From: Thermodesulfobacteriota bacterium
GTDB taxonomy: Bacteria; Desulfobacterota; Desulfarculia; JACQYL01
Reading direction: 5' to 3'
Length of the DNA stretch: 64,000 nucleotides
NCBI GenBank assembly: GCA_963675595.2
Contig: CAXXLZ010000002.1
Location: 928,001 to 992,000, forward strand
The notes beneath the pieces are model-generated. The model searched no databases. It was not told where the DNA came from and was given only the letters and a program-made list of their open reading frames with translations. Both the position numbers and the translations under genes were made by a program. This document shows, one piece after another, positions 12,196 to 50,379 of this stretch (its first letter is position 1; each line of letters begins with the position of its first letter).

Positions 12196-12403
12196 ATCTT
12201 CTCCTTCCCATGAAGCCGTCCCGAGAAACCTATTTCGTATAGTCGCATAGCACCGACAAAGCGGTCTTTTGTTCAGGGAGGGCGTAAAATAGTTTATTGA
12301 TATGAGCATAAAATAGGTTAAGGCACGATACTTAATACCACATGTTTCTTAATTTGATGGGTCATCGCTGATAGTGTAGTTAATTCATGCTATTTGCACT
12401 AAT

Positions 12404-14452: not shown

Positions 14453-14490
14453 TGAACCACCCTTTCGATGCATCAGGCACTGGATTGGAT

Positions 14491-14895
14491 TTACTCCTTG
14501 CTTTGAACTTCTTCCAAGTGCTTCTTCGATTCCTCGATATCGGTCAACATTTCTTGAGTGCTTTCTTTTTCTTTCTCGGACTGCGCCTTGGCATTAGCAA
14601 GTGTCGCATCCGCCCAGGCCTTTTCAGCCAAAAAATAGGCCTGTTCGTATTCACCCTTGATCAGCAGGTTTTTCGCTTCGTATAGCCCGTCTTCTGCCTC
14701 CATAAGTTCAGGGGGAGGCTCTTGTATATTCTTGCTATTCTTTCTGGCTTCAAGAAGCGTTGTCTCTGCCTTGGTTATCATATTCTCGGTATCGATTCTC
14801 AGTTTCGGAGAACAAGAGACTTGAATAAGTATTAGGAAGGTTAGCATGAATAAACTAAATAGGACTCTTGATCTATCATATCCCAAATAAACCAT
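14491..14895 (-). CDS. DUF4398-like lipoprotein
   Basis: Lipobox-like IQVS-C; PELMEAEDGLYEAK...GEYEQAYFLAEKAWADATLANAKA matches the DUF4398 pattern. Confidence 0.78.
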   Translation of the reverse strand: MVYLGYDRSRVLFSLFMLTFLILIQVSCSPKLRIDTENMITKAETTLLEARKNSKNIQEPPPELMEAEDGLYEAKNLLIKGEYEQAYFLAEKAWADATLANAKAQSEKEKESTQEMLTDIEESKKHLEEVQSKE

Positions 14896-14922
14896 AATTC
14901 TCCCCCAATTTAGAAGTAAATT

Positions 14923-17900
14923 CTATATACCTGGTACCGGAACAAACAACTCCTTAGGATAAGGGCTTGGTTTATCCCTATATTTTTCAGAAGCTTTCTT
15001 TTTTATTTCATCTTTAACAGATTTTTCAACCAGCCTGACCAAATCGTTTAGTTTTGGATAGCTCTGAATCGATTGCTGGTGGCCTTCCACTGTTTGCTTA
15101 AAATCGATGCTTACTTCTAGACAACAATCCAATGTATCACACTTATCAATTCTATTCTGCAAATCCTTAAGTTCATTTTTGAATATAAATGCATCCCAAT
15201 TAATTATCAAACCTGACATTATAGCGTTTGTTTCTCTAACAAAATAGTCAACTTGCTTATGGGTAACATTAACTTTACTAAGTTTTTTAATAATTTCTTT
15301 CGCATTCAATTTTGCCCGTTTTAGGTACTTTATAGAAGTATATCGATCGTATAATTTTCCGTTTTCGTTATCATTTGTTTTTGATCCGGAAAATATTCCA
15401 GATAAACCTGATAGCCAACCGGTATTTGAACCACTATAATAATCTTGGTTATTTTCGGTAAGTTTTGCAAGCCGAACATCTTCGTCAATAATTTCATATC
15501 CTGATATTAAAACACGGAAAACATCGAGAAACTCTCTGTACATTATCACAGTATCATTACTCTTCTCAGTTTTTCCGTACGTGCTGTCGTACTCACTAAT
15601 TATCGTTTCAAGCTTTTCAAATTCAGACGTTCCGTGATTGGGTTGGTGGATTTCGGCCATCAACTTTTCCACCACACGTTTCATTTCCTGCTTCTTTCCA
15701 ATTCTGATCGATTCTCCCTTCTGCTCCATCCGCTCTTTCGACTGGACCACAGCACGTCTTATCTGATCTGCTTTGGACCGTATCGCCGAACTGGAGCCGA
15801 CCAACTCCTTTTTGCTTTGAAGCAAATTTTCCAAAGCAATTTGGATTCCCTCACACGCTTCCACGCCGCCACACTTGACTGCCTTCGCAGCCAAGTCATC
15901 CAGTTGTCCCAAGAGAATCCCTTCGCGGCGCGACGCCAACCGGCCCTGCACATGCTTCCTCGCCGCCTCATTGAAGGTCGCCAGTTTCTTATATGCGGAC
16001 AACCCTTCGATCTCTTTTAGCACCTTCCCGTAGAGTTCCTCGCCCTGCGCGAACAGTCCTTTATTCTCCGCTTCGTCTGCGGCGTTCAGGAAACCCCTCA
16101 GCCGCTTATGCGCCTCCACCAAGTCTCGATAGCTCTTAGCGGTTTCGGACCGGTATCCTTGGGTACTTGAGTACTTTCGGTATTCCGACACCAGACTGCC
16201 CACCTGTTCCATCTGAGCCGAACCGTATCCCGGCGATTGGAAGGACACCTTTCCCAACATCTCTTCCATCTCCCTCACGATGCGCGCGAGCTCACCCTCT
16301 CGTTCCGCCCGTCCTCTCGATGCGGTCACGGCTTTTTCTATCGATTCCGCTTTGGAGCGGACGGCCGAACTGGAATCCATTAGTTCCTTCTGGCCTTGGA
16401 GCAGCTTCTCCAAATCCGTTCGCACGTCCCCGCACGCTTTGACGCTCCCGCATTCCGAGGCTCTGCTCCCCAAATCTTCCAGTTGCGCCAAAAGCATCCC
16501 TTCGCGGCACGACGCCAACCGGCCCTTCACGTGTTCCCTCGCAGCACCGGTGAAAGTCCCTAGTTCTTGATGACCGGACAGGCTTTGGATTTCTTCCAGC
16601 GCCTTCGCATAGAGTTCCTCGCCCTGATCGAACCGTCCTTGATTCTCCGCCTTTTCCGCCGCATCCAGAAGACCCGTCAGCCGTTTATGGGCCTCGATCA
16701 GGTCTTGGTAGCTCTTCACGGTCTTGGAACTGTACCCCCGGGTACTCGAGTACTTCCCATATTTCGAGACCAGCTCGCCCAGCTTATCCATCTCAGCCGA
16801 ACCGTACCCCGAAGACGTGAAAGACACCTTGCCCAAGACTCCCTTCATCTGCCTCGCGATGTAGACGACATCGCTCTCTTCCTGCGCCCGTCCTCTCGAT
16901 GCGGCCACGGCTTTTTCTATCGATTCCGCTTCGGAGCGAATGGCCGAACTGGAGTCCATTAGTTCCTTTTGGTCTTGGAGCAGTTTCTCCAAATCCGTTT
17001 GCACGTCCCCGCACGCTTTGACGCTTCCGCATTTGGACGCCCTGCTCCCCAAATCCTCTAGTTGTGCCAAAAGCATCCCCTCGCGGCACGACCGTATCCC
17101 GTCCCTCACGTACGCTAATGCCCCTGCGTTGAACGTCGCCATTTCCTTGTGAACGGACAGCCCTCGCATTTCTTCCAGCGCCTTCTCATAGAGCTCCTTG
17201 CCCTGTTCGAACCGTCCTTGATTCTCAGCCTTTTCCGCCGCATCCAGAAGACCCGTCAGCCGTTTATGCGCCTCGGTCAGGTCTTGGTAGTTCTTTGCAG
17301 TCTTGGAACTGTACCCCCGGATGCCCGAGTACTTCCCATATTTCGAGACCAGCTCGCCCAGCTTATCCATCTGAACCGAACCATATCCCGGCGATTGGAA
17401 GGACACCTTTCCCAACAACTCATCCATTTCCCTCACGATGCGCGCGAGCTCACCCTCTCGTTCCGCCCGTCCTCTCGATGCGGCCACGGCTTTTTCTATC
17501 GATTCTGCTTTGGAGCGAATGGCCGAACTGGAAACTACTAGTTCCTTTTGGCCTTGGAGCAGCTTCTCCAAATCCGTTTGCACGTCCCCGCACGCCGTCA
17601 CGCTCCCGCATTTGGACGCCCTGCTCCCCAAATCCTCCAGTTGTGCCAAAAGCATCCCCTCGCGGCACGAAGCCAGCCGGCCCTTCACGTAATCCCTCGC
17701 AGTGCCGTTGAAAGTTTCTAATTCTTTATGACCGGATAGGCTTTGGATTTCTTCCAGCGCCTTCGCATAGAGTTCCTCGCCCTGCTCGAACCGTCCTTGA
17801 TTCTCCGCTTCGTGTGCGCCGTTCAAAATACTCGTCAAACGCTCGTGCCCGGCAAGCAGTTCCTGGTAACTCTTAACCGTTTCGGCCTGATATCCACGGG

Positions 17901-22038: not shown

Positions 22039-22197
22039 GTAAATATCGGAGATTAGACCATTATATTAGGATATTCAGGAGCTAATTTATTTAACGTATG
22101 GCAATAACTTTTTACATCAAGGATGAGGTATCTCCACAGACAGGTATAAATAGTTACGTGCCCCGACCCTCCCGCCGCGAATAACCCCCAACGCTCA

Positions 22198-22329
22198 GGC
22201 CCGGGTTCTTCGCTCATGGGCTTCGCCGCATGCGCAGGCTCCGCCCTCTTCGCTCAGAACCTCGGCCCTCACCTGCAAGGAAAACCGCACAGGGTAAAGG
22301 GGTAAAAGGGATCAGGGGTAAGACCTCAG
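22198..22329 (-). repeat. 132-bp 3' element, copy A (IMH-like pyrimidine tract + GC hairpin)
   Basis: Identical to 24517-24648; covers the last codons of the gene and the downstream sequence. Confidence 0.9.
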
Positions 22330-24306
22330 CAGACGCGCGCCGAGGTTGCCGCCGCGGACGTCCGGCGTGAGGCCGCCGCGATTCGCCGAACGGCAGTACC
22401 CCGCGTAGTAGTACCAGCCGCCGCCGCGAAGAACCCGGTAGGAGCCTGAAGCGGGACCCGTGGGATCCGTAACGGATCCACTGGGATAGTCGCCGAACCA
22501 GTCTTCCACCCACTCCCAGACGTTTCCGTGCATGTCGTACAACCCCCAGGCATTGGCCGCCTTTTGAGCCACGGGATGTGTCATGTCTCCGGAATTGTGA
22601 CAATACCACCCCATGGCGTACAGGTTCGGATCATAACCGCAGACGGTTTCCGTGATGCCGCCATTGGCAAAGGCCGTCGTGGAACCCGCCCGAGCCGCGC
22701 ACTCCCACTCCGCTTCCGTGGGCAACCGGTACGTGCCCTCGCCCAGTTGATTCATTGCCGCCACAAAATCCTGGACGTCGTCCCACGATACAGATTCCAC
22801 GGGACAATCATCTCCACAAGAACTGAACGAGGAGGGATTGCTCCCCATGACCGCTTTCCACTGCCCCTGCGTAATCTCCGTGGTCTGCAGGTAATATCCT
22901 TGGGTCAGCGTCACCTGGTGTTGCGTCTCATCGCTGTCCCGGCCCGGCTCATCCGTGGGACTGCCCATGGTGAACGTGCCCGGCGGGATATATTTGAAGG
23001 TCATGCCGAGAGAGTTGGTGAACGTGTCCGGTGGCGACGTTTGCAGGAATTTCGACCAGGCCTGTGTCGGTCGGGGGGACCCGGAAAACGGCGCTTCCAC
23101 GCATCTTTCCAGCGAATCCATGCCGGCTGTGCCGGAACCCGAAAAGCTCATGGTCAGGTGGTACGGTTTGCCCCCTAACTCATCCGCATCGATGCCGTCG
23201 GCGGCGTTGGAATCCAGGAACACGTAGTAGTCCGCCAGGTTCGAGGTTCCGATGGCAACAGCCGAACCCGTGTCGTAGGTTTGGACGTAGTAGTTCATCT
23301 GCGCGGCGCCGCAGGAAGGAGACTTCCAGATCCCGTGATTGGCCGGGGTCGAGCCCAGGCCGTTGGTCCTGGATATGACGTAGGTCGCCGGGGAGCCGAA
23401 CCGGGTCAATACGGCGTTCCCGTGACTTCCGTCCGTAAACGTGACGGACAGATGGTGTCCCATTCCGGCGTAGTCGCTCACATCGATGCCGTCTTGAATA
23501 TCGGCGTCGATGAACACGTAGTACTCCGTCAGATCGGGCGTGGCCAGGATCAAGGCCGAACCGTCCACATAACTCTGGATGTAGAAGTTCATGGAAAGCC
23601 CCGCGTCCTTCCATATCCCGTCGTAGATTACCGACCACGAACCGACCTGAATTTGAAAGCTCCTGGGCACGGAAGTCCGGTCATCGCTATCCCTTACGCT
23701 GCAGGTCGCCGTATAAGAGCCCCCCTGCGCGTAGGTGTGACTGGTTTGTCCGTCGGAACGGATGTCGGAGGTCCCGTCGTCGAACCGAAAAACGTACTCT
23801 ACAATGGGCGATCCATAGGGGTCGTATCCCGAACAGGTGCAATCGACCTGCAACGGTGCGTTCCCCGACGCGGGTGAACAAGAAAACGCCGAGACTACGG
23901 GATCCTCGCAAACTTCACCGATTTCCGGAACATAGGTGCAACCGGAGGGGCCCAGATTGGCACGAATCTCTATCGGCTCTAACACGGTGGAGCTCCCGTC
24001 GGCATGAAAGGCCGTGCAGACCGCGAGAAACTCGCCGGCGCCCAAATACGTGTGCGCCACATAACCTCGGGAGGAGGATTCAAAAGAGCCGTCGCCGAAG
24101 TCGAAAAAGTATTCAACCGCGCCCGGAGCCGTATCGGGTACGGCGCAGCCGAAGGATACCGTCAACGGAGCCGGACCGGCCGCCGGATCGGGACGAACGT
24201 TGAAAGCCGAGGTTGCAAAAGACACCGGTGGACTCAGCGTCGAGGCAACGAGGCATCCAAAGACAGTAAAAAGGAGCATTCTCGGTAACGAATAGGGTGA
24301 TCTCAT
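22312..24306 (-). CDS. Secreted 2xPKD + 2x unknown ~95-aa domain + FGE-sulfatase (CLec-fold) protein A; candidate DGR target
   Basis: Likely start MRSPYSL with GGAGAG RBS; PKD motifs G.APLTVSF, YFFDFGDG and HTY..G.Y; FGE motifs RLPTEAEWE, NAWGLYDMHGNVWEW and RGGGW. Confidence 0.85.
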   Translation of the reverse strand: MRSPYSLPRMLLFTVFGCLVASTLSPPVSFATSAFNVRPDPAAGPAPLTVSFGCAVPDTAPGAVEYFFDFGDGSFESSSRGYVAHTYLGAGEFLAVCTAFHADGSSTVLEPIEIRANLGPSGCTYVPEIGEVCEDPVVSAFSCSPASGNAPLQVDCTCSGYDPYGSPIVEYVFRFDDGTSDIRSDGQTSHTYAQGGSYTATCSVRDSDDRTSVPRSFQIQVGSWSVIYDGIWKDAGLSMNFYIQSYVDGSALILATPDLTEYYVFIDADIQDGIDVSDYAGMGHHLSVTFTDGSHGNAVLTRFGSPATYVISRTNGLGSTPANHGIWKSPSCGAAQMNYYVQTYDTGSAVAIGTSNLADYYVFLDSNAADGIDADELGGKPYHLTMSFSGSGTAGMDSLERCVEAPFSGSPRPTQAWSKFLQTSPPDTFTNSLGMTFKYIPPGTFTMGSPTDEPGRDSDETQHQVTLTQGYYLQTTEITQGQWKAVMGSNPSSFSSCGDDCPVESVSWDDVQDFVAAMNQLGEGTYRLPTEAEWECAARAGSTTAFANGGITETVCGYDPNLYAMGWYCHNSGDMTHPVAQKAANAWGLYDMHGNVWEWVEDWFGDYPSGSVTDPTGPASGSYRVLRGGGWYYYAGYCRSANRGGLTPDVRGGNLGARLLRSYP

Positions 24307-24516
24307 GCGCTCTCCCAAAGGCCCAAAGATTAACGGATCACGGTGCGATTGGATTTGCCCCGCTATCTCCCTTTCCAGTCGGGTTAGTGAAACCATCATG
24401 GACCGACTAGCTTCGGACGGGATTTCATACGGGGTCAAATATGGCTGTAAATTCAGCCTCGCTTCGCTCGGCTTTCTTTTCCCTTTATCCTTACGCCGGG
24501 AACGTCTCCCCGTTCC

Positions 24517-24648
24517 GGCCCGGGTTCTTCGCTCATGGGCTTCGCCGCATGCGCAGGCTCCGCCCTCTTCGCTCAGAACCTCGGCCCTCACCTGCAAGGA
24601 AAACCGCACAGGGTAAAGGGGTAAAAGGGATCAGGGGTAAGACCTCAG
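24517..24648 (-). repeat. 132-bp 3' element, copy B
   Basis: Identical to 22198-22329. Confidence 0.9.
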
Positions 24649-26634
24649 AAGGCGCAAACCGAGGTGGCCGTCGCGGGTGACCGGCGCGCGGATGAAGCGA
24701 AAGGCCGAACGACAGTACAACGCGTAGTTGTCCCAGCTGCCGCCGCGACACACCCGGTGGGAGCCCGACGACGGACCCGTGGGATCCGTTACGGATCGAC
24801 TCGGATAAGTGCCGTACCAGTCCTGACACCACTCCAACACATTGCCGTGCATGTCGTAGAGTCCCCAGGCATTGGCCGACAAGCTGCCCGTAGGAATCGT
24901 CTTTCCTCGGTCCTCACCTTCCGGACAGCCGGACATCGGATAATCCCCGTCATAATTCGCATCGTCGGTTGACAGACAGTCTCCAAAAGCGAAAGGAGTG
25001 GTGGAGCCCGCCCTTGCGGCGTACTCCCACTCCGCTTCCGTGGGCAACCGGTACGTGCCCTCGCCCAGTTGATTCATTGCCGCCACAAAATCCTGGACGT
25101 CGTCCCACGATACAAATTCCACGGGACAATCATCTCCACAAGAACTGAACCAGGAGGGATTGCTCCCCATGACCGCTTTCCACTGCCCCTGCGTAATCTC
25201 CGTGGTCTGCAGGTAATATCCTTGGGTCAGCGTCACCTGGTGTTGCGTCTCATCGCTGTCCCGGCTCGGCTCATCCGTGGGACTGCCCATGGTGAACGTG
25301 CCCGGCGGGATATATTTGAAGGTCATGCCGAGAGAGTTGGTGAACGTGTCCGGTGGCGACGTTTGCAGGAATTTCGACCAGGCCTGTGTCGGTCGGGGGG
25401 ACCCGGAAAACGGCGCTTCCACGCATCTTTCCAGCGAATCCATGCCGGCTGTGCCGGAACCCGAAAAGCTCATGGACAGGTGGTACGGTTTGCCCCCTAA
25501 CTCATCCGCATCGATGCCGTCGGCGGCGTTGGAATCCAGGAACACGTAGTAGTCCGCCAGGTTCGAGGTTCCGATGGCAACAGCCGAACCCGTGTCGTAG
25601 GTTTGGACGTAGTAGTTCATCTGCGCGGCGCCGCAGGAAGGAGACTTCCAGATCCCGTGATTGGCCGGGGTCGAGCCCAGGCCGTTGGTCCTGGATATGA
25701 CGTAGGTCGCCGGGGAGCCGAACCGGGTCAATACGGCGTTCCCGTGACTTCCGTCCGTAAACGTGACGGACAGATGGTGTCCCATTCCGGCGTAGTCGCT
25801 CACATCGATGCCGTCTTGAATATCGGCGTCGATGAACACGTAGTACTCCGTCAGATCGGGCGTGGCCAGGATCAAGGCCGAACCGTCCACATAACTCTGG
25901 ATGTAGAAGTTCATGGAAAGCCCCGCGTCCTTCCATATCCCGTCGTAGATTACCGACCACGAACCGACCTGAATTTGAAAGCTCCTGGGCACGGAAGTCC
26001 GGTCATCGCTATCCCTTACGCTGCAGGTCGCCGTATAAGAGCCCCCCTGCGCGTAGGTGTGACTGGTTTGTCCGTCGGAACGGATGTCGGAGGTCCCGTC
26101 GTCGAACCGAAAAACGTACTCTACAATGGGCGATCCATAGGGGTCGTATCCCGAACAGGTGCAATCGACCTGCAACGGTGCGTTCCCCGACGCGGGTGAA
26201 CAAGAAAACGCCGAGACTACGGGATCCTCGCAAACTTCACCGATTTCCGGAACATAGGTGCAACCGGAGGGGCCCAGATTGGCACGAATCTCTATCGGCT
26301 CTAACACGGTGGAGCTCCCGTCCGCATGGAAGGCCGTGCAGACTGCGAGGAACTCCCCGGCCCCTATATACGTATGCTCGGCCAAGCCGCGGGTGGAGAA
26401 TTCAAAAAACCCGTCACCGAAGTCGAAAAAGTATTCCGTCGCACCTTGAATCGTTTCAGGTACCGCGCAGTCGAAGGAGACCGTCAACGGTGCCGGACCC
26501 GCCGCCGGATCGGGACGGGCAAAAAGGCCTTCGTTCTCCGAGGACGATGCGACGGTTCCAGCGAAGGCGACAAAGGTTGCGAGCAAGAGGATCAGCATAC
26601 GAAGGCCTCTGGGAAGCGCGTCTCTTGTACTCAT
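24631..26634 (-). CDS. Secreted 2xPKD + 2x unknown domain + FGE-sulfatase protein B; candidate DGR target
   Basis: Likely start MSTRDAL with AGGAG RBS; central ~1.3 kb nearly identical to gene A (offset 2322); different C-terminal half of the FGE domain. Confidence 0.85.
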   Translation of the reverse strand: MSTRDALPRGLRMLILLLATFVAFAGTVASSSENEGLFARPDPAAGPAPLTVSFDCAVPETIQGATEYFFDFGDGFFEFSTRGLAEHTYIGAGEFLAVCTAFHADGSSTVLEPIEIRANLGPSGCTYVPEIGEVCEDPVVSAFSCSPASGNAPLQVDCTCSGYDPYGSPIVEYVFRFDDGTSDIRSDGQTSHTYAQGGSYTATCSVRDSDDRTSVPRSFQIQVGSWSVIYDGIWKDAGLSMNFYIQSYVDGSALILATPDLTEYYVFIDADIQDGIDVSDYAGMGHHLSVTFTDGSHGNAVLTRFGSPATYVISRTNGLGSTPANHGIWKSPSCGAAQMNYYVQTYDTGSAVAIGTSNLADYYVFLDSNAADGIDADELGGKPYHLSMSFSGSGTAGMDSLERCVEAPFSGSPRPTQAWSKFLQTSPPDTFTNSLGMTFKYIPPGTFTMGSPTDEPSRDSDETQHQVTLTQGYYLQTTEITQGQWKAVMGSNPSWFSSCGDDCPVEFVSWDDVQDFVAAMNQLGEGTYRLPTEAEWEYAARAGSTTPFAFGDCLSTDDANYDGDYPMSGCPEGEDRGKTIPTGSLSANAWGLYDMHGNVLEWCQDWYGTYPSRSVTDPTGPSSGSHRVCRGGSWDNYALYCRSAFRFIRAPVTRDGHLGLRLLRSYP

Positions 26635-26860
26635 GAGGGTCTCCTGTGCGTTTTCGTTTTTCGGAACGCCCGAAAGGGGTAGAAGCGGAAATTTCATGTC
26701 CGTTTTCTTTTGCCCAAAACGGATGGAGTGGATTCTCGGAGAAAAAACGAGCGACCGATGAACGTATCTGCTCACTGCCGAGCCTCTCTGATCATTCGGA
26801 TCATTCAAACTGCGACGCCCTCGTCGGAGGTTCCGGGTTTCCGGATGGTCGCACATGAGG

Positions 26861-29800
26861 TTAGTGATTCGACTTTGCGCGTTGCCTCGCAGCCAGGAGA
26901 TCGGCAAGGGATTCTCGTGTAAGCTGTTCGGCCTTGCGGTTCCATTCGGCGTCCCCGTAATAACTCACGGAAACCTCGTTCGCGAACGCTTTGCCCGTGT
27001 GTAAATCCACCAGGGCGGTGTATATTTTGGAATCAATGGTCGGACTGTACGGATTTTCTGCGGTGAGTCGGACCGCGTAGGAAATGACTGCGTCCGCCCC
27101 TGCCGCCGCTCCCAAGCTTCGCATGGTTTCCGTGTCGGGTCGCGGATCGTTTTCAGACCATCTGTGAGTCCAGACACCGGTTGACCGGGTCTTTTCATTC
27201 AAGATCGGAGTACCAACGAGCGCGGGGTGGAATCCGGCGAAATCGTACGCGGAGGCAACGGCCGTGATTTTGACAAACCCGGGCAAGATTTCAGATAGAG
27301 CTTTGAGAAAGTAATTCAGAAGGCGGTCGTGTTCTGTCGGAAGATCAAAGGGCAGGATCACCAGCTTGACGTTGGAATCCACAGCCGGTTTGACGGCCGG
27401 CCGCTGATCGTCGGCTTTCACAGCGGCAGCCGGTTCAGGCTTTTTCCCGATCGATACGGAAACATGATGCGATCTTGCGCGTTGCCTCGCGGCAAGAAAA
27501 TCGGCAAAGGATACTCGTGTGAGTTGTTCTGCCTTGCGGTTCCATTCGGCGTCTCCGTAATAACTCACGGAAACCTCGTTCACGAACGCTTCGCCCGTAT
27601 GTACATTCACCAGGGCGGTGCATATCTTGGAATCAATGGTCGGGCTGTACGGATTTTCTGCGGAGAGTCGGACCGCGTAGGAAATGACTGCGTCCGCCCC
27701 TGCCGCCGCGCCCAAGCTTCGCATGGCTTCCGTGTCGGGTCGTGGATCGTTTTCAGACCATATGTGGTTCAAGACACCGCTTGACCGGGTCTTTTCATTC
27801 AAGTTCGGAGTGTCAGCGAGCGCAGGGTGGAATCCGGCGAAATCATACGCGGAGGCAACGGCCGTGATGTCGGCATGACCGGGCAAAATTTCAGATAGGG
27901 CTTTGAGAAAGTACTTCAGATGGCGGTCGTGTTCTGTCGGAAGATCAAAGGGCAGGATCACCAGCTTGACGTTGGAATCCACAGCCGGTTTGACGGCCGG
28001 CCGCTGATCGTCGGCTTTCAGAGCGGCAGCCGGTTCGGGCTCTTTTCCCATCGATATGGGAGACGGCTCGAAAGCGAGCAAATCCCCCTCTTGCTGAGCC
28101 CGTTTTCTTGACACGGCCACGGCTTCTCTTACAGCTTCCGCTTTGGCCCGGATCGCCGGGCTACAATCCAACAGGTCCTTTTTGCCTTGAAGTAACTTCT
28201 CCAGTGTCGCTTGCACCTGCCCGCATGCTTCCAAGCTCTCGCAACTGGTCCCCTTCCCGGCCAGGTCTTCCAGTTTTCCCAGAAGAATCCCTTCTCGGCA
28301 GGACGCCATGCGACTGGTCACATGCGCTCGTGCCGCCTCGTTGAACGAGGAGAGTTCTCTGCAAGCGGACAGCTGTTCGATCTCCCCAAGGGCCCTCTCG
28401 TACAGCTCTTTTCCCTGCTCGAAACGACCCTGTTTCTCGGCCTTGTTCGCAGCGTCCAGCAAACCCGTCAGCCGTTTATGCGCCTCCAACAAGTCTCGAT
28501 AGCTCTTAACGGTTTCGGACTGGTATCCGCGTGTCTCCGAGTATCTCACGTACTCCGAGATGAGCTTCCCCAGCTCGTCCGTTTCAGCCCCGCCGTACCC
28601 CGGCGACTTGAAGGAAATCCTATCCAACGACTCCTTCATCTCCCTCGCGATCCGGAGCAATTCCCACTCTTCCTGCGCCTTTCTTTTAGACACTGCCGCC
28701 GCTGCTCTTATGGCTTCCGCTTTGGCCCGGATCGCCGAGCTGGATTCCACCAACTCCTTTTGGCCTTGGAGCAACTTCTCCAGAGCAGTGTGCACTGCCC
28801 CGCATGCTTCAACACTCCTACACCTGGAAGCGTCACCGGCCAAATCCTCCAGTTGCGCCAAAAGCATCCCTTCGCGGCACGACGCCAGCCTGCCTCTTAC
28901 GTACTCTCCCGCCGCCTCATTAAAGGAGGCGATTTCCTTGTGGGAAGACAGCTGTTCGATTTCCCCAAGGGCCTTTTCGTAGAGTTCCTCGCCCTGCTCG
29001 AACCGTCCTTGATTCTCAGCCTTTTCCGCCGCATCCAGAAGACCCGTCAGCCGTTTATGGGCCTCGATCAGATCATTATAGCTTTTGGCGGTTTCGGGCT
29101 TGTATCCTTGGGTACTCGAGTACTTCCCGTATTTCGATACCAGACTGCCCAGCTCATTCATCTCATCCGAACCGTATCCCGGCGATTGGAAGGACACCTT
29201 TCCAAACAACTCATCCATTTCCCTCACGATGCTGGCCAGCTCTCCCTCTGCCAGCGCCCGTCTTTTGGAAGCGGCCACGGCTCTTTCTAAGGCTTCAGCT
29301 TTGGTCCGGACGGCCGAACTGGAATCCATTAGTTCCTTTTGGCCTTGGAGCAGCTTCTCCAGAGCCGTTTTCAACTCCCCGCACGCTTTGACGCTCCCGC
29401 ATTCCGAGGCCCTGCTCCCCAAATCCTCCAAGCGCCCCAAGAGGACCCCCTCGCTGCAGGACTGCATGCGACTCCTCACATGTCGTTGTGCCGCGTCGAT
29501 GAAGGTCGCCGGCGCCTTGTAGGCGGACAGGCCTTCGACCTCCATGAGCGCCTTCTCGTAGAGTTCCTCGCCCTGATCGAACCGTCCCTGATTCTCCGCC
29601 TTTTCGGCCGCATCCAGAAGCTCCGTCAGCCGTTTATGTCCCTCGATCAGATCATTATAGCTTTTGGCGGTTTCGGCCTGGTATCCTTGGGTACTCGAGT
29701 ACTTCCCGTATTTCGAGACCAGACTGCCCAGCTTATCCATCTCAGCCGAACCGTATCCCGGCGATTGGAAGGACACCTTTCCCAACAACTCATCCATTTC

Positions 29801-32800
29801 CCTCACAGTGCGGGCCAGCTCACCCTCTCGTTCCGCCCGTCCTCTCGATGCGGCCACGGCTTCTCTCACGGCTTCGGCTTTGGACCGAATGGCCGAACTG
29901 GAGTCCATTAGTTCCTTTTGGTCTTTGAGCAGCTTCTCCAAATCCGTTTGCACGTCCCCGCACGCTTTGACGCTTCCGCATTTGGACGCACCACCGGCCA
30001 AATCCTCCAAGCGCCCCAAGAGGACCCCCTCGCTGTAGGACTGCATGCGACTCCTCACATGCCGTTGTGCCGCATCATTGAACGTCGCCATTTCCTTGTG
30101 AACGGACAGCCCTCGCATTTCTTCCAGCGCCTTCTCATAGAGCTCCTTGCCCTGTTCGAACCGTCCTTGATTCTCAGCCTTTTCCGCCGCATCCAGAAGA
30201 CCCGTCAGCCGTTTATGCGCCTCGGTCAGGTCTTGGTAGTTCTTTGCAGTCTTGGAACTGTACCCCCGGATGCCCGAGTACTTCCCATATTTCGAGACCA
30301 GCTCGCCCAGCTTATCCATCTCAGCCGAACCGTATCCCGGCGATTGGAAGGACACCTTTCCCAACAACTCATCCATTTCCCTCACGATGCGGGCCAGCTC
30401 TCCTTCTCGTTCCACCCGTCCTCTCGATGCGGCCACGGCTTCTCTCACAGCTTCGGCTTTGGACCGGACGGCCGAACTGGAATCCACCACGGCCTTCCGG
30501 CTTAGGAGCAGGTTGTCCAGCGCCGTTTTCACTTCCCCGCACGCCGCCACGCTCCCGCATTCGGAGGCTCTACTCCCCAAATCCTCCAGTTGCGCCAAAA
30601 GCATCCCTTCGCGGCACGACGCCAGCCTGCCTCTTACGTACTCTCCCGCCGCCTCATTAAACGAGGCGAGTTCCTTGTGGGAAGACAGCTGTTCGATTTC
30701 CCCAAGGGCCTTCTCGTAGAGTTCCTCGCCCTGCGCGAACCGTCCTTGATTCTCCGCCCTTTCCGCCGCATCCAGAAGATCCGTCAGCCGTTTATGCGCC
30801 TCGATCAGGTCTTGGCAGCTCTTCGCGGTCTTGGAACTGTACCCCCGGGTGCCCGAGTACTTCCCATACTCCAATAACAGCTTGGCCAACTTGTTCATCT
30901 CATCCGAACCGTATCCCGGCGATTGGAAGGACACCTTCCCCAACATCTCTTCCATCTCCCTCACAGTGCGGGCCAGCTCTCCCTCTGCCAGCGCCCGTCT
31001 TTTCGAAGCGGCCACGGTTTCTCGTACGGCCTTCGCTTTGGACTGAATCGCCGAACTAGTCTCTACCAAGTCTTTTTGCTCCTCAAGCAGCCACTCCAGG
31101 TCAACACGCTCTCGTTCGCAAAATTCCACGCTCGCGCACCCGGACGCTCTACGAAGCAAATTCTCCAGTTGCCCCAAGAGAATCCCCTCGCGGCACGACC
31201 GTATCCCGTCCCTCACGTATGCTAATGCGCCGGCATTGAACGTCGCCATTTCCTTGTGAACGGACAGCCCTTGCATTTCTTCCACCGCCTTCTCATAGAG
31301 CTCCTTGCCCTGCTCGAACCGACCTTGCTTACCGGCCTTGTCCGCTTCGTCAAGTAAACTCGCCATCCGTTTGTGCGTTTCCAACACTTCTCGGTAGCTC
31401 TTGGCCGTTTCGGACCGGTATCCGCGTGTCTCCGAGTATCTCACGTACTCCGAGAGGAGCTTACCCAGCTTGTCCGTTTCAGCCCCGCCGTACCCCGGCG
31501 ACTTGAAGGAAATCCTATCCAACGACTCCTTCATCTCCCTCGCGATCCGGAGCAATTCCCACTCTTCCTGCGCCTTTCTTTTCGACACTGCCGCCGCTGC
31601 TCTTATGGCTTCCGCTTTGGCCCGAATCGCCGAGCTGGATTCCACCAACTCCTTTTGGCCTTGGAGCAACTTCTCCAGAGTCGTTTGGATTCCCTCACAC
31701 GCCTTCACGCCGCCACACTTGGCGGCCTTCCCGGCCAGATCGTCCAGTTGTCCCAAAAGAATCCCTTCACGACACGACGCCGTGCGGCTCATCACATGCT
31801 TCCTTGCCGCGTCGCTGAAGGAAGCCGGCACCTCATGTCCGGACAGGCTTTCGATTTCCCTGAGCGCCTTCTCGTACAGCTCCTTGCCCTGCTCGAACCG
31901 CCCCTCATTCTCCGCTTCGTCCGCAGCGTTCAAAATACTCGTCAAACGCTCGTACCTAGCAAGCAGTTCCTGGTAACTTTTAATCGTTTCGGCTCGGTAC
32001 CCCCGAGTCCCCGAGTACTTCACGTACTCCGAAAACAATTCCCTCACCTTATCCATCTGGGCCGAACCGTATCCCGGCGATTGGAAGGACACCTTTCCCA
32101 ACATCTCTTCCATCTCCCTCACGATGCGTGCCAGCTCTCCTTCTCGTTCCGCCCGTCTTTTGGAAGCGGTCACGGCTCTTTCTACGGCGTCAGCTTTGGT
32201 CCGGACGGCCGAACTGGAGTCCATTAGTTCCTTTTGGTCTTTGAGCAGCTTCTCCAGAGCCGTTTTCAACTCCCCGCAGGCTTTGACGCTCCCGCATTTG
32301 GACGCCCTGCTCCCCAAATCCTCCAGTTGTGCCAAAAGCATCCCTTCGCGGCACGACGCCAACCGGCCCTTCACATGCTCGCTTGCCGCGTCGATGAAGG
32401 CCGCCGGCGCCTTATAGGCGGACAGTCCTTTGATCTCCCTGAGCGCCCTCTCATAGAGTTCCTCGCCCTGCGCGAATCGTCCTTGATTCTCCGCCTTTTC
32501 CGCCGCATCCAGAAGATCCGTCAGCCGTTCATGGGCCTCGATCAGGTCTTGGCAGCTCTTCGCGGTCTTGGAACTGTACCCCCGGGTGCCAGAATACTTC
32601 CCATATTTCGAGACCAGACTGCCCAGCTCTTCCATCTCAGCCGAACCGTAGCCCGAAGACTTGAAAGATACCTTGCCCAAGACTCCCTGCATCTGCCTCG
32701 CGATGTAGACGACATCGCTCTCTTCCTGCGCCCGTCTTTTCGACACGACCACGGCTTCTCTTAGGGCTTTCGCTTTGGAACGGACGGCCGAACTGGAATC

Positions 32801-35038
32801 CATTAGTTCCTTCTGGCCTTGGAGCAGCTTCTCCAAATCCGTTTGCACGTCCCCGCACGCCGTCACGCTCCCGCATTCGGAGGCTCTGCTCCCCAAATCC
32901 TCCAGTTGCGCCAAAAGCATCCCTTCGCGGCACGACGCCAGCCTGCCTCTTACGTACTCTCCCGCCGCCTCATTAAACGAGGCGAGTTCCTTGTGGGAAG
33001 ACAGCTGTACGATTTCCCCAAGGGCCTTCCCGTAGAGTTCCTCGCCCTGCGCGAATCGTCCTTGATTCTCCGCCCTTTCCGCCGCATCCAGAAGATCCGT
33101 CAGCCGTTTATGCGCCTCGATCAGGTCTTGGCAGCTCTTCGCGGTCTTGGAACTGTACCCCCGGGTGCCCGAGTACTTCCCATATTTCGAGACCAGCCCG
33201 CCCAGCTTATCCATCTCAGCCGAACCGTATCCCGGCGATTGGAAGGACACCTTTCCCAAAACTCCCTCCATCTGCCTCGCGATGTAGACGACATCGCTCT
33301 CTTCCTGCGCCCGTCTTCTCGATGCGGCCACGGCTTTTTCTATCGTTTCCGCTTTGGAGCGGACGGCCGAACTGGAATCCACCACGGCCTTCCGGCTTAG
33401 GAGCAGGTTGTCCAGCGCCGTTTTCACTTCCCCGCACGCCGTCACGCTCCCGCATTCGGAGGCTCTACTCCCCAAATCCTCCAGTTGCGCCAAAAGCATC
33501 CCTTCGCGGCACGACGCCAGCCTGCCTCTTACGTACTCTCCCGCCGCCTCATTAAACGAGGCGAGTTCCTTGTGGGAAGACAGCTGTACGATTTCCCCAA
33601 GGGCCTTCCCGTAGAGTTCCTCGCCCTGCGCGAATCGTCCTTGATTCTCCGCCCTTTCCGCCGCATCCAGAAGATCCGTCAGCCGTTTATGCGCCTCGAT
33701 CAGGTCTTGGCAGCTCTTCGCGGTCTTGGAACTGTACCCCCGGGTGCCCGAGTACTTCCCGTATTTCGAGACCAGCCCGCCCAGCTTATCCATCTCAGCC
33801 GAACCGTATCCCGGCGATTGGAAGGACACCTTTCCCAAAACTCCCTCCATCTGCCTCGCGATGTAGACGACATCGCTCTCTTCCTGCGCCCGTCTTCTCG
33901 ATGCGGCCACGGCTTTTTCTATCGATTCCGCTTTGGAGCGGACGGCCGAACTGGAATCCATTAGTTCCTTTTGGTCTTGGAGCAGCTTCTTCAAATCCGT
34001 TTGCACGTCCCCGCAGGCTTTGACGCTCCCGCATTCGGAGGCTCTGCTCCGCAAATCCTCCAGTTGCGCCAAAAGCATCCCTTCGCGGCACGACGCCAGC
34101 CTGCCCTGCACATGCTTGTTTGCCGCGTCGATGAAGGTCGCCGGCGCCTTATGGGCCGACATCCTTTGAATTTCTTTCAGGGCCTTTTCGTAGAGTTTTT
34201 CGCCCTGCTCGAATCGTCCTTGCTTCTCGGCCTTGTCGCCTTCGTCAAGAAAGCCGCTCAGCCGTTTGTGTGTCTTCAACAGGTCTCGGTAGCTCTGGGC
34301 GAGTTCGACCCGGTAGCCGTCCGCACCTGAATGTTCCTCGTATTCGGAAACCAGCTCGTCCAGTCTTTCGATCTCCGCTCTCCCATAGCCGGGCGATTTG
34401 AAGGATATGTTCCCCAAAGACGCTTCCATCTCCCCCACATTGTGGCGTAACTTCTCAACTTCCTGCTTTGCTTTTCTCTTATCCTCATAACCCTGTGCTT
34501 TCTTCCGGACCTTTTCTTCTAAGGTATGGTAGGTTTCTATTAGTGGCTTGAAATTATCAGGCACGTAATTACCGCTTTTCTCTTGAATAACCCTACCTTC
34601 ACTATCAATCCAGATCAGAATGGGAGTAATTATTTCAATATCGAATATTTTAGCAAGATTTTTGTATTCCAATGTCATGAATAATCGATCTTTTGTACCG
34701 AACTCCTCAATATCCTTTTTCCAGCTTCGTTCCCAGTATTCACGTGGAGAAACGGGAATCGCAATAACGGATAATGTCTGATTCTTCTTGGCCAGGAACT
34801 CAATAGCTTTGAGAATTATCCTTTCTTTTTCTTTTTCAGGAAGGAAAAAGAATACAGCAGTCATTGGTGATTTAAAAACATTTCTAGATTGAACGTTCCG
34901 ACCATTAATATCCTTAAAAGTGAATAATTTAACCAGATCACCTTCTTTAACTGATGCAAAAATTTGGGTATCTCCAATACATATTGCTAAACATGCAAAT
35001 AAGACTATATATTTTATTGTAATATATATATATTTCAT
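26861..35038 (-). CDS. Giant secreted repeat protein 2 (2725 aa): redoxin-like N-domain, eleven 193-aa repeats, two C-terminal CsgG/TolB-N-like domains
   Basis: Same N-domain and repeat as protein 1; the C-terminal 200-aa unit (KLVILPF...LGAAAGADAVI...I.TALV...TG) is duplicated. Confidence 0.85.
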   Translation of the reverse strand: MKYIYITIKYIVLFACLAICIGDTQIFASVKEGDLVKLFTFKDINGRNVQSRNVFKSPMTAVFFFLPEKEKERIILKAIEFLAKKNQTLSVIAIPVSPREYWERSWKKDIEEFGTKDRLFMTLEYKNLAKIFDIEIITPILIWIDSEGRVIQEKSGNYVPDNFKPLIETYHTLEEKVRKKAQGYEDKRKAKQEVEKLRHNVGEMEASLGNISFKSPGYGRAEIERLDELVSEYEEHSGADGYRVELAQSYRDLLKTHKRLSGFLDEGDKAEKQGRFEQGEKLYEKALKEIQRMSAHKAPATFIDAANKHVQGRLASCREGMLLAQLEDLRSRASECGSVKACGDVQTDLKKLLQDQKELMDSSSAVRSKAESIEKAVAASRRRAQEESDVVYIARQMEGVLGKVSFQSPGYGSAEMDKLGGLVSKYGKYSGTRGYSSKTAKSCQDLIEAHKRLTDLLDAAERAENQGRFAQGEELYGKALGEIVQLSSHKELASFNEAAGEYVRGRLASCREGMLLAQLEDLGSRASECGSVTACGEVKTALDNLLLSRKAVVDSSSAVRSKAETIEKAVAASRRRAQEESDVVYIARQMEGVLGKVSFQSPGYGSAEMDKLGGLVSKYGKYSGTRGYSSKTAKSCQDLIEAHKRLTDLLDAAERAENQGRFAQGEELYGKALGEIVQLSSHKELASFNEAAGEYVRGRLASCREGMLLAQLEDLGSRASECGSVTACGDVQTDLEKLLQGQKELMDSSSAVRSKAKALREAVVVSKRRAQEESDVVYIARQMQGVLGKVSFKSSGYGSAEMEELGSLVSKYGKYSGTRGYSSKTAKSCQDLIEAHERLTDLLDAAEKAENQGRFAQGEELYERALREIKGLSAYKAPAAFIDAASEHVKGRLASCREGMLLAQLEDLGSRASKCGSVKACGELKTALEKLLKDQKELMDSSSAVRTKADAVERAVTASKRRAEREGELARIVREMEEMLGKVSFQSPGYGSAQMDKVRELFSEYVKYSGTRGYRAETIKSYQELLARYERLTSILNAADEAENEGRFEQGKELYEKALREIESLSGHEVPASFSDAARKHVMSRTASCREGILLGQLDDLAGKAAKCGGVKACEGIQTTLEKLLQGQKELVESSSAIRAKAEAIRAAAAVSKRKAQEEWELLRIAREMKESLDRISFKSPGYGGAETDKLGKLLSEYVRYSETRGYRSETAKSYREVLETHKRMASLLDEADKAGKQGRFEQGKELYEKAVEEMQGLSVHKEMATFNAGALAYVRDGIRSCREGILLGQLENLLRRASGCASVEFCERERVDLEWLLEEQKDLVETSSAIQSKAKAVRETVAASKRRALAEGELARTVREMEEMLGKVSFQSPGYGSDEMNKLAKLLLEYGKYSGTRGYSSKTAKSCQDLIEAHKRLTDLLDAAERAENQGRFAQGEELYEKALGEIEQLSSHKELASFNEAAGEYVRGRLASCREGMLLAQLEDLGSRASECGSVAACGEVKTALDNLLLSRKAVVDSSSAVRSKAEAVREAVAASRGRVEREGELARIVREMDELLGKVSFQSPGYGSAEMDKLGELVSKYGKYSGIRGYSSKTAKNYQDLTEAHKRLTGLLDAAEKAENQGRFEQGKELYEKALEEMRGLSVHKEMATFNDAAQRHVRSRMQSYSEGVLLGRLEDLAGGASKCGSVKACGDVQTDLEKLLKDQKELMDSSSAIRSKAEAVREAVAASRGRAEREGELARTVREMDELLGKVSFQSPGYGSAEMDKLGSLVSKYGKYSSTQGYQAETAKSYNDLIEGHKRLTELLDAAEKAENQGRFDQGEELYEKALMEVEGLSAYKAPATFIDAAQRHVRSRMQSCSEGVLLGRLEDLGSRASECGSVKACGELKTALEKLLQGQKELMDSSSAVRTKAEALERAVAASKRRALAEGELASIVREMDELFGKVSFQSPGYGSDEMNELGSLVSKYGKYSSTQGYKPETAKSYNDLIEAHKRLTGLLDAAEKAENQGRFEQGEELYEKALGEIEQLSSHKEIASFNEAAGEYVRGRLASCREGMLLAQLEDLAGDASRCRSVEACGAVHTALEKLLQGQKELVESSSAIRAKAEAIRAAAAVSKRKAQEEWELLRIAREMKESLDRISFKSPGYGGAETDELGKLISEYVRYSETRGYQSETVKSYRDLLEAHKRLTGLLDAANKAEKQGRFEQGKELYERALGEIEQLSACRELSSFNEAARAHVTSRMASCREGILLGKLEDLAGKGTSCESLEACGQVQATLEKLLQGKKDLLDCSPAIRAKAEAVREAVAVSRKRAQQEGDLLAFEPSPISMGKEPEPAAALKADDQRPAVKPAVDSNVKLVILPFDLPTEHDRHLKYFLKALSEILPGHADITAVASAYDFAGFHPALADTPNLNEKTRSSGVLNHIWSENDPRPDTEAMRSLGAAAGADAVISYAVRLSAENPYSPTIDSKICTALVNVHTGEAFVNEVSVSYYGDAEWNRKAEQLTRVSFADFLAARQRARSHHVSVSIGKKPEPAAAVKADDQRPAVKPAVDSNVKLVILPFDLPTEHDRLLNYFLKALSEILPGFVKITAVASAYDFAGFHPALVGTPILNEKTRSTGVWTHRWSENDPRPDTETMRSLGAAAGADAVISYAVRLTAENPYSPTIDSKIYTALVDLHTGKAFANEVSVSYYGDAEWNRKAEQLTRESLADLLAARQRAKSNH
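26875..28060 (-). repeat. Two tandem 600-bp copies encoding the C-terminal domain
   Basis: Sequence at 27361 recurs at 27961. Confidence 0.9.
28080..34449 (-). repeat. Eleven tandem 579-bp coding repeats
   Basis: Shadow ORFs at 32637, 33216 and 33795; boundaries approximate. Confidence 0.9.
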
Positions 35039-35115
35039 GAAAAACTCAGTTAGTTTAGTTTTTCTTTTGAATCTTTTTAAAATAGTAGTGCATATTTTAA
35101 TCCTAACTAATTATG

Positions 35116-49659: not shown

Positions 49660-50379
49660 TTACGGTTTCAAGACCACCGCCCCGACAAAAGTCAGGTTAT
49701 CCTTGCTGCCCTGGGACAGGGCCAGGTCTTTGAGACTGCCCCAGAGGGTCTCAAAACATTTACCGCTCTCCGCCGACTCCAAGATTTGCGTTTCGGACAC
49801 ATGCCCGTGCAGGCCGTCGGTAGTCAGAATGAAAAGGTCCAGTGGCCGAGCTTCCAAATACCCGATTTCCGGCACGGCCGAATCCCCCCCCAAGAAACGA
49901 AGCAAAACATTGCGCATGGGGTGCGCCCTCGCTTCTTCAGGGGTGATCCTACCTTGCTGAAGCAGCCCCCCGGGCAGATTATGGTCTTCCGTCACCCGGA
50001 TAAGCCGCCGGTCTCTCAGAAGGCAAAGCCGCGAATCGCCGATATGACCGTACCAGGCCCCATTTTCGGTGAGCCACAGCAGGGTCAGAGTTGTCCCCAT
50101 GGTGTTGCCCAGGACCTCGCCTCTCGAACAAATCTGATCGTTCTTCTCCTTGAAGAACAATTCGATGGTCTCCGCCTCCCTTCCGGCCTCGGGGGTCCAT
50201 TGGTCGAGTCCCTCCACCGCCAGCGAGGCGGCGATCTCACCGGCAAGGTGACCGCCCATGCCGTCCGCCACCGCGAGCAGGGCCCCGGCGTCCCTCACCG
50301 AAACATACCATCTGTCTTCCTGGTTCCGACGGAAACCGCCCATATCCTGAGCGCCGAACACCTCAATGGTCATTTTCAA
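49660..50379 (-). CDS. pppA: PP2C-family Ser/Thr phosphatase (PppA-like)
   Basis: R..QED, VADGMGGH..GE.AS, MGTT, H.GDSR, TDGL and DNLT. Confidence 0.9.
   Translation of the reverse strand: MKMTIEVFGAQDMGGFRRNQEDRWYVSVRDAGALLAVADGMGGHLAGEIAASLAVEGLDQWTPEAGREAETIELFFKEKNDQICSRGEVLGNTMGTTLTLLWLTENGAWYGHIGDSRLCLLRDRRLIRVTEDHNLPGGLLQQGRITPEEARAHPMRNVLLRFLGGDSAVPEIGYLEARPLDLFILTTDGLHGHVSETQILESAESGKCFETLWGSLKDLALSQGSKDNLTFVGAVVLKP

Follow-up and report, generated by a model that had tools for sequence, protein, structure and literature searches.

Two giant proteins built from an orphan 193-residue repeat and putatively linked to a type VI secretion kinase in a Thermodesulfobacteriota bacterium

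A stretch of 64,000 nucleotides from a Thermodesulfobacteriota bacterium (assembly GCA_963675595.2, contig CAXXLZ010000002.1, positions 928,001 to 992,000 of the forward strand), referred to here as the window, was analysed for two genes encoding giant proteins of 2371 and 2725 aa, named giant A (P0001) and giant B (P0002). Both proteins comprise a signal-like N-terminus, a thioredoxin-like head that lacks the CxxC motif and 10 or 11 copies of a 193-residue helical unit, and their genes lie within a gene cluster for a type VI secretion system (T6SS). The unit is an orphan, with no relative save hairpin matches to the tetratricopeptide repeat (TPR) family TPR_12 and with no convincing fold match. 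We tentatively favour, with slightly less than even confidence, the reading that the giants are Sec-exported periplasmic proteins that serve the T6SS threonine-phosphorylation switch as input or scaffold, plugged by their head into a PpkA-like kinase. Their description as a lineage-specific, hypertrophied form of kinase-linked periplasmic proteins is the best supported one; the periplasmic location, the rod length and the signalling role are what we infer for them.

The reading frames of the giants were uninterrupted over 7.1 kb (giant A) and 8.2 kb (giant B). The motifs QGRF/EGRF/KGLF and (P/S)GYG were spaced by exactly 193 aa, ten times in giant A and eleven times in giant B, a periodicity far above chance, and a profile of the unit recovered 21/21 units with 310.6-347.8 bits apiece, in agreement with the signal-like start, head and 10 or 11 helical copies described in the initial annotation. 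Pairwise identity between units ranged from 50 to 100%, and 39 of the 193 columns were invariant in an alignment of 16 units that omits B3-B7, near-duplicates of A2-A6. The three Cys previously given as usual were confirmed, the C-x5-C pair (C148 and C154) being present in 21/21 units and C129, within SCREG, in 19/21 (absent from A10 and B8); an extra fourth Cys occurred at unit position 62 in seven of the 21. The copy numbers 10 and 11 were taken from the long assembly, since contigs of short reads reach only about 74 nt into the array. No further 193-aa unit was detected elsewhere in the whole genome (6.79 Mb, 3 contigs). The signal-like N-termini, read by eye, consist of a Lys-containing start and about 20 hydrophobic residues, followed by LLA|IV and IFA|SV, and they align with the post-signal start of a family of ~650-aa relatives described below.

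Two loops of the unit, SFxSPGYG (positions 24-31) and SxxxGY (49-54), showed an invariant aromatic-Gly pattern in all 21 units (example, window 20854-20877), and these loops may form a repeated binding surface. The G+C content was 43% in the heads, the tail of giant A and a third, separate copy of the head (14001-16000 and 34001-36000), compared with 56-59% for the units and an overall 53% for the window.

The units were compared in pairs for synonymous (dS) and nonsynonymous (dN) substitutions. dS was above 0.1 in 203/210 pairs, with a mean dS of 0.81 and a mean dN of 0.23 across these 203, a median dN/dS of 0.29 and a ratio below 1 in all of them. From these values the repeat array is old and kept by purifying selection rather than a product of fresh amplification, and the giants are real, selected genes. 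Recent sequence exchange has also taken place between the genes of giant A and giant B: from A2 to the first half of A6, compared with B3-B7, only 9 differences were counted in the first 2623 nt, followed by 62 in 272 nt. The nearly identical conversion tract measures ~2.6 kb (window 16500-20950 and 29900-33320). A second conversion tract was observed in the two genes encoding proteins with PKD and FGE-sulfatase domains that lie between the giants (22312-26907), with an identical block of ~465 aa and differing ends.

One unit gave no Pfam family at E ≤ 10. Among the whole proteins only TPR_12 (PF13424) passed its threshold, and only in giant A (32.2 against 30.1 bits), giant B reaching 15.0 bits, below the 30.1 cut-off. 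Pfam and NCBIfam searches of the whole giants and of their parts yielded nothing for the unit or for the tip of giant B (tip B), and otherwise sub-threshold noise. In an exhaustive HMMER search of 1,835,955,588 representative proteins with the unit profile, 18 proteins were retrieved at E ≤ 1e-3, three at E ≤ 1e-10 and one, giant A itself, at E ≤ 1e-30. Five other matches were scanned, and four of them were TPR_12-rich NB-ARC, CHAT or TIR proteins; TPR_12-rich proteins aligned to unit positions ~35-120 only. The TPR-like segment noted earlier stands as one hairpin per 193 aa, and a single unit on its own has no Pfam match. A word-indexed protein search with region 1-600 of giant A returned the two window proteins only, the unit was present in 0/40 nearest genomes, and 114 pattern matches from a scan covering 185,579 species genomes all failed to be confirmed. 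In the PDB sequences, the unit profile matched the TPRs of kinesin light chain only (E 0.03-0.14). A language-model search with two units (recognition 1224) placed them nearest to TPR clusters with a best score of 0.83, to be taken as no more than a lead. Two precomputed Pfam labels were also considered. PF10952, listed for both giants, had no match genome-wide with the local model version. PF27015 is listed for giant B only, and for this reason it is unlikely to be the common 193-aa unit.

The structure of two consecutive units was modelled with AlphaFold2 from a 15-row alignment of unit pairs. The model was all helical, with about six helices per unit, a mean confidence (pLDDT) of 89.5 and a predicted template modelling score (pTM) of 0.60. 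A 40-residue helix (176-215) spans the unit boundary, and the C-x5-C pair lies at the corner between a helix ending at 146 and a helix starting at 151. Foldseek with this model found nothing at E ≤ 1e-3 (best E 0.038, TM 0.15), and the top match of a Foldseek-independent fold search reached Z 10.0, in comparison with ~13 reached by unrelated helical models. Residues 26-133 of the model matched a pectin methylesterase inhibitor (Z 9.7, root mean square deviation (rmsd) 2.5, 99 residues), and such sub-matches would indicate an up-down four-helix bundle. As modelled, the unit appears to be a helical bundle, TPR-flavoured and stapled by Cys, with a continuous helix linking it to the adjacent units. 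From the helix lengths, a rod of ~6-7 nm per unit and ~60-75 nm as a whole may be estimated. No confident match to a described repeat family emerged from the Pfam, HMMER and AlphaFold2 plus Foldseek checks, and the repeat is as unrecognised as it was when first annotated. The proposal of long rod-like spacers that present different tips was borne out in part: the all-helical model with its helix crossing between units is in keeping with a rod, and a periplasmic partner of the PpkA-like kinase is the more specific reading preferred here to a general presenter of tips.

The heads, of ~140 residues, follow directly after the signal-like N-terminus in both giants, and the mature heads of giants A and B contain no Cys at all. 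Against a CxxC-bearing AhpC/TSA protein, hhalign gave 79.3% (E 1.5e-5, 124 columns), with IPEEE and LPEKE of the heads standing opposite WCPGC, which bears out the earlier description of a thioredoxin-like head devoid of CxxC. A direct comparison with Pfam AhpC-TSA gave E 0.045 and 14.1 bits against a cut-off of 26. The PDB sequence search with the head found nothing meaningful, and the word-indexed protein search, at the 'near' and 'longer' lengths, had no match, its E-values for a 5.8-billion database being too harsh for a relation of 29 bits. In 400 other genomes of the phylum, the head profile matched nine at E ≤ 0.01, and seven of the nine matches lay in open reading frames of ~650 aa. 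The ~650-aa proteins show the architecture signal, AhpC-TSA-like head (E ~1e-14), TPRs, CsgG-like domain and FlgT_C, with an invariant YFFDxxSRPSQE where CxxC is expected. The giant heads aligned with this family by hhalign (95.3%, E 2.1e-8, 109 columns) and by BLASTP (25% identity over 142 aa, E 3e-6). The profile of the ~650-aa family matched 50/400 phylum genomes at E ≤ 1e-20, 16 of them over nearly its full length; the genome of the window has no canonical member. Judged by these alignments, the giant head is a thioredoxin fold (AhpC/TSA- or TlpA/ResA-like) without CxxC and kin to the head of the ~650-aa family. For RpoB, identity does not exceed 66-68% to records labelled Thermodesulfobacteriota, Desulfobacterales, Geobacter or Syntrophales, so that the organism is considered a deep-branching member of the phylum with few close genomes.

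The loci of nine relatives were fetched with their flanks. In 7/9 loci the ~650-aa gene is immediately preceded, in the same orientation, by the gene of a Ser/Thr kinase that carries a PEGA domain at its C-terminus (five of these kinases were checked by Pfam and two by alignment); in the other two, one contig ends before the kinase position and one locus has no kinase. The pair is flanked by a PP2C phosphatase, a trypsin-like protease and a small CsgG-like protein, and beside it, in divergent orientation, are an FHA protein and a VipA/VipB-like protein in one piece, both verified in 4 loci. The kinase paired with a ~650-aa relative is 41% identical, over the full length (E 6e-101), to K1, the PpkA-like kinase of the window, which is located 0.9 kb from the start of giant B on the opposite strand.

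Further observations were made in the loci of the relatives. The one-piece VipA+VipB-like proteins measure 521-526 aa (locus L104, 14164-15732; L101, 4097-5662; L105, 7984-9564; L106, 14612-16183) and adjoin a protein with two FHA domains and the kinase/PP2C/protease cassette; in L104 no other T6SS core genes were found within the 20 kb seen. Two proteins of ~1100 aa (L115, 1066-4356; L117, 1018-4326) join an adenylate/guanylate cyclase domain and a CHAT domain to the TPR/CsgG-like module known from the ~650-aa family, and for this reason the module appears to be reused with other signalling outputs. A 1300-aa protein of genome G367 (L118, 565-4467), N-terminally CsgG-like and with no other Pfam match, is encoded upstream of the cassette as a further large envelope protein in such a setting, and by hhalign it is unrelated to the 193-aa unit. 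A 226-aa lipoprotein was negative by hhalign against the small CsgG-like partner proteins.

A complex of the giant B head (145 residues, 10-row alignment) with the periplasmic part of K1 (residues 318-406, 8-row alignment) was predicted with a docking score of 0.66 (runs 0.59, 0.68 and 0.66), while the best of three controls scored 0.00. The 0.66 mark was reached by 116/157 solved complexes and 2/215 mismatched pairs, counts that hold only roughly here because our own alignments were used. The runs shared at least 88% of contacts, with a partner pLDDT of at least 79. The predicted interface comprises, in the head, L37, E39, K40 and E43 (the former CxxC turn), V67-P69, E106-P110 (the cis-Pro loop) and S126-Y129, and in K1 the strand TKEAGIFI (residues 378-385). 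It includes the invariant or nearly invariant head columns S68, I108, P110 and G127 and the invariant kinase columns G366, E381, A382 and L394. The vestigial active-site groove of the head, the old thioredoxin substrate site, is thus predicted to dock on the PEGA domain of K1. Together with the homology to CxxC-less heads encoded beside PEGA kinases, this prediction favours the earlier suggestion of a non-catalytic docking module.

The two ends of the giants differ. Tip A (residues 2102-2371 of giant A, 270 aa, low GC) matched the unit profile collinearly at 3-72 and 107-189 (iE 5e-6 and 9e-6) and the units by tblastn (21% identity, E 1e-6), and it retains the Cys cluster at the matching place; it is a very diverged eleventh unit and not a foreign domain. 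Tip B consists of two copies, 87% identical, of a 190-aa domain, with no relative in Pfam (E ≤ 10), in the PDB sequences or in 400 phylum genomes (0/400). The language-model search placed it beside LpoB/GNA1162/FlgO/CsgG-like lipoprotein clusters (0.91-0.94); hhalign against the ~650-aa family and the small CsgG-like partner proteins gave <1%, and an AlphaFold2 model from a 2-row alignment had a pLDDT of 38. The tips had been annotated as unrelated to each other and as different domains on display, but tip A is a degenerate unit.

The third head, just upstream of giant B and with its own signal-like N-terminus, has an in-frame TGA at 35431-35433, where the giants carry Trp. The same TGA is present in the contigs of runs X1 and X2 and of a second sample, X3, all from one study. 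Selenocysteine was considered, the TGA being aligned to Trp; in the relatives the idea was rejected, the flags of a TGA inside a match proving to be ordinary stop codons between genes. The window holds three heads and likewise three PEGA-bearing proteins (K1, K2 and a PEGA-FGE protein).

The link to T6SS made in the initial annotation is well founded: the giants are located between fha/tagF/tssM and the only tssJ of the genome. The cluster encodes TssC, Hcp, TssE/F/G, ClpV, VgrG, TssK/L/M, TagF, Fha, two PEGA kinases, a PP2C phosphatase and three proteins with an FGE-sulfatase domain. The order is fha, tagF, K1 (opposite strand), head remnant, giant B, two PKD-FGE genes, giant A, DUF4398, TssJ fusion and PEGA-FGE, all the listed genes except K1 being on one strand with short gaps (27 nt between giant A and DUF4398, 17 nt between DUF4398 and the TssJ fusion). 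The FGE-sulfatase domain (PF03781) was found in neither giant, but in three neighbouring genes instead. The first ~550 residues of the TssJ fusion comprise a signal-like N-terminus and a coiled-coil-like stretch of ~500 aa; they include an internal duplication but lack a lipobox Cys, an extension that is unusual for TssJ. A promoter and terminator scan detected no intergenic terminator-like site between the minus-strand genes. It was likewise uninformative for promoters, the top-scoring pair of hexamers overlapping the start codon of giant A. The coordinates are detailed in Table 1.

Table 1. Location of the giants, their parts and neighbouring genes in the window (position 1 is the first nucleotide of the window).
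Feature	Position	Strand	Remarks
Giant A (P0001), 2371 aa	14923..22038	(-)	Open reading frame
Giant A, signal-like N-terminus and thioredoxin-like head	21526-22038	(-)	
Giant A, units A1-A10	15736-21525	(-)	
Giant A, tail	14926-15735	(-)	Low GC; diverged eleventh unit with a Pro-rich end
Giant B (P0002), 2725 aa	26861..35038	(-)	Open reading frame
Giant B, signal-like N-terminus and thioredoxin-like head	34475-35038	(-)	
Giant B, units B1-B11	28106-34474	(-)	Followed by a linker
Giant B, tip	27434-28033 and 26864-27433	(-)	Two copies of a 190-aa domain
Third, stand-alone head copy	35116-35736	(-)	Own signal-like N-terminus; just upstream of giant B
K1, PpkA-like Hanks Ser/Thr kinase	35953..37173	(+)	One transmembrane helix, periplasmic PEGA domain; Pfam
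PKD and FGE-sulfatase-domain protein (TagR-like)	24631..26907	(-)	True start probably downstream of the listed TTG
Second PKD and FGE-sulfatase-domain protein (TagR-like)	22312..24609	(-)	~465 central residues identical to neighbour
DUF4398 small envelope protein	14491..14895	(-)	
689-aa protein with C-terminal TssJ domain	12404..14473	(-)	Only TssJ match in the genome
PEGA and FGE-sulfatase-domain protein (third TagR-like)	11062..12309	(-)	
Fha (FHA domain)	37193-38638	(-)	
TagF	38632-39531	(-)	
K2, second Ser/Thr kinase with C-terminal PEGA domain	46607..48259	(-)	
PP2C phosphatase (PppA-like)	49660..50379	(-)	Domain match at 49789-50322; only PP2C_2 match in the genome

The left edge of the cluster holds transposase genes (Mutator-family, DDE and rve; 1257-2483, 4544-5677 and 6899-7666) and a RecD2-like fragment (2682-3839), and a gene for a PD40/WD40-like beta-propeller protein is located between hcp and tssE (60699-61706, minus strand).

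On the tentatively favoured reading, the giants would sit on the input side of the switch, which comprises the PpkA-like kinases, the PP2C phosphatase, Fha, TagF and the TagR-like FGE proteins. The CxxC-less head would clamp the edge strand of the kinase PEGA domain through its vestigial active-site turn and cis-Pro loop, and the 10 or 11 orphan units behind it would form a long semi-rigid rod. Each unit of this rod may be an up-down helical bundle with one TPR-like hairpin, a C-x5-C corner and a helix of ~40 residues running into the next unit. The distal ends differ, with a degenerate capping unit in giant A and two unclassified, alpha/beta-looking domains in giant B. The rods may hold or cluster the kinase relative to a distant envelope component, together with the interleaved TagR-like proteins, and could thereby help to set when or where Fha is phosphorylated and the T6SS assembled.

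Several points weigh against this proposal. K1 is oriented divergently to the giants and not co-transcribed with them, as the kinase is in the relatives with its ~650-aa neighbour. The docking is a model's confidence, obtained from shallow alignments of our own, the two-unit model has a pTM of only 0.60, and the rod length is an estimate from helix lengths; a rod of tens of nm, moreover, exceeds the width of an ordinary periplasm. The head does prefer the ~650-aa family to ordinary thioredoxin-like proteins, but by a modest margin: the generic CxxC-bearing AhpC/TSA protein also reaches 79%, and with the family profile the giant A head has the same E (2.3e-8) as a generic CxxC protein of 205 aa encoded in this genome. 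By hhalign, the unit shows no detectable relation to the TPR region of the relatives (6%) and tip B is unrelated to their CsgG-like domain; the architectural parallel between the giants and the ~650-aa proteins rests on the head and the gene context.

Other explanations must be weighed against the same data. The giants might play a passive, structural part without any signalling role, spacing or tethering the membrane complex of the T6SS where the envelope is unusually wide or layered. We consider this unlikely, although it is compatible with a place in the phosphorylation switch and does not exclude it. It would suit the run from giant A to DUF4398 (after 27 nt) and the genome's only TssJ (after 17 nt), with ~500 aa of coiled-coil-like sequence and no lipobox, as well as the invariant unit positions, mostly hydrophobic, Gly or Cys as a scaffold would have, and the all-helical model with its connecting helix and weak resemblance to spectrin and plakin (Z 8.9 and 7.8). 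However, the kin of the head are encoded beside PEGA kinases and not beside TssJ or TssM, the docking prediction points to the kinase, and the fold matches are below the level of unrelated helical proteins. A purely structural role, or else an unusual envelope, is kept alive as a reading by the rod exceeding an ordinary periplasm and by the coiled-coil TssJ, which echoes its length. A mechanical ruler or tripwire is, in our judgement, decidedly unlikely: rods of ~60-70 nm on the kinase would reach a distant envelope layer, whose displacement or breakage upon contact, attack or envelope damage would be relayed as kinase clustering, and, with the coiled-coil TssJ, the T6SS would have been rebuilt for an unusually wide or multilayered envelope. 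The clamping of PEGA by a thioredoxin fold would in that case be the as yet undescribed coupling rule of an entire T6SS-linked family of envelope sensors in Thermodesulfobacteriota.

The unit Cys, of which two or three are conserved in each unit and over 60 in all, could alternatively switch the shape of the rod as a thiol, redox or metal sensor and report envelope redox stress to the T6SS switch. The conservation of C148/C154 in 21/21 units and of C129 in 19/21, the Cys cluster kept at the matching place of the diverged tail unit and the placement of the organism among Thermodesulfobacteriota are in line with this idea, which we nevertheless hold to be improbable: the C-x5-C pair at the helix-loop-helix corner (146/151) can be simply a structural disulfide staple, no known metal or heme motif is present, and no redox Cys is left in the head itself. 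The unit Cys are most simply such staples, given the two DSBA-family genes of the genome. Little probability is likewise given to an exported surface or matrix protein (adhesin, S-layer-like or filament) merely lying within the T6SS cluster. A signal-like N-terminus, large size and tandem repeats are common to many surface proteins, and confinement to one genome, as observed for the unit, is frequent in fast-evolving ones; but Pfam detected no sorting signal, autotransporter, T1SS or anchor domain, the genes are on the same strand among T6SS membrane-complex and threonine-phosphorylation genes, the homologues of the head are tied to kinases, and a dN/dS of 0.29 is unlike that of a diversifying surface antigen. 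Nothing points to the adhesin or the surface exposure suggested at first. Delivery by the T6SS as an effector or cargo, which the position in a T6SS cluster near vgrG might suggest, deserves almost no credence: a Sec-type N-terminus is not expected of T6SS substrates, no PAAR, Rhs, MIX or toxin domain was found in Pfam, no immunity-like small gene follows the giants, and proteins of 2371-2725 aa made of rigid repeats would be poorly suited to passage through the Hcp lumen.

The unit has neither a relative nor a fold match; the overall logic is a variant of the known T6SS threonine-phosphorylation pathway. A full-text literature search retrieved no paper on such giants, on a head-PEGA coupling or on the ~650-aa family. 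To our knowledge, the sensing that sets the time and place of T6SS firing has been worked out in detail in few Proteobacteria only (TagQRST-PpkA, TslA and RtkS). The locus offers a new, testable coupling, the predicted grip of a redox-dead thioredoxin fold on the PEGA domain of a PpkA-like kinase, the head being carried by a ~650-aa periplasmic protein in relatives and by two putative rods of 2400-2700 aa here. If the docking holds, the PEGA domains found in many bacterial Hanks kinases would acquire a function, as would a widespread, unannotated family of ~650-aa proteins, and the giants would exemplify a signalling accessory inflated to a rod. The unit was modelled with confidence and is a new helical building block whose corner is stapled by Cys, which makes it relevant to the evolution and design of repeat proteins.

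Among known repeats, the unit resembles TPR_12 repeats in that its positions ~35-120 match TPR_12-rich proteins, but it has one TPR-like hairpin per 193 aa instead of tandem helix pairs of 34 aa, and its GYG loops, Cys corner and connecting helix are without counterpart in TPRs. With spectrin and plakin rods it would share, according to the AlphaFold2 model, bundles linked by a helix that runs between units. The matches to spectrin repeats 15-17 (Z 8.9, 224 residues aligned, rmsd 8.3) and to the plakin domain of desmoplakin (Z 7.8, 287 aligned, rmsd 12.2) were weak, both below the helical noise of ~13; a spectrin repeat has ~106 aa and three helices, in contrast to 193 aa and about six helices in the unit, no sequence similarity was found, and the giants are bacterial and, from their signal-like N-terminus, probably exported.

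Redox-inactive thioredoxin folds serve in binding, for example as the b and b' domains of protein disulfide isomerase. As in these domains, CxxC is lost in the giant head and the old substrate groove is the predicted binding site; unlike them, the head is AhpC/TSA- or TlpA-like, its putative partner is a PEGA domain and its proposed context is periplasmic signalling. With the ~650-aa family the giants share a homologous CxxC-less N-terminal head after the signal, a helical middle part behind it and an adjoining kinase, which in the family is orthologue-like to K1 (41% identity). They differ from it in having 10-11 orphan units in place of the TPR array, in lacking CsgG-like and FlgT_C domains (Pfam E ≤ 10, hhalign), in their fourfold size and in the kinase gene, directly upstream there and divergent from the giants here.

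The closest functional parallel considered is the H1-T6SS pathway of Pseudomonas aeruginosa (TagQ/TagR-PpkA-PppA-Fha1-TagF). TagR is described as a periplasmic protein with an FGE-sulfatase domain (PMC13713981), modelled together with the lipoprotein TagQ to bind and dimerise the periplasmic domain of PpkA (PMC13713981; review PMC13584744). The giants have neither an FGE domain nor similarity to TagR, and the periplasmic domain of the window kinase, unlike that of P. aeruginosa PpkA, is PEGA. The window resembles this pathway in its cytoplasmic parts and logic, with a Hanks kinase that has a domain in the periplasm, a PP2C phosphatase, Fha and TagF, in its periplasmic TagR-like proteins with an FGE-sulfatase domain, and in the action of envelope proteins on the periplasmic domain of the kinase that is proposed here, the proposed partner being a rod of 2400-2700 aa instead of a 32-kDa lipoprotein.

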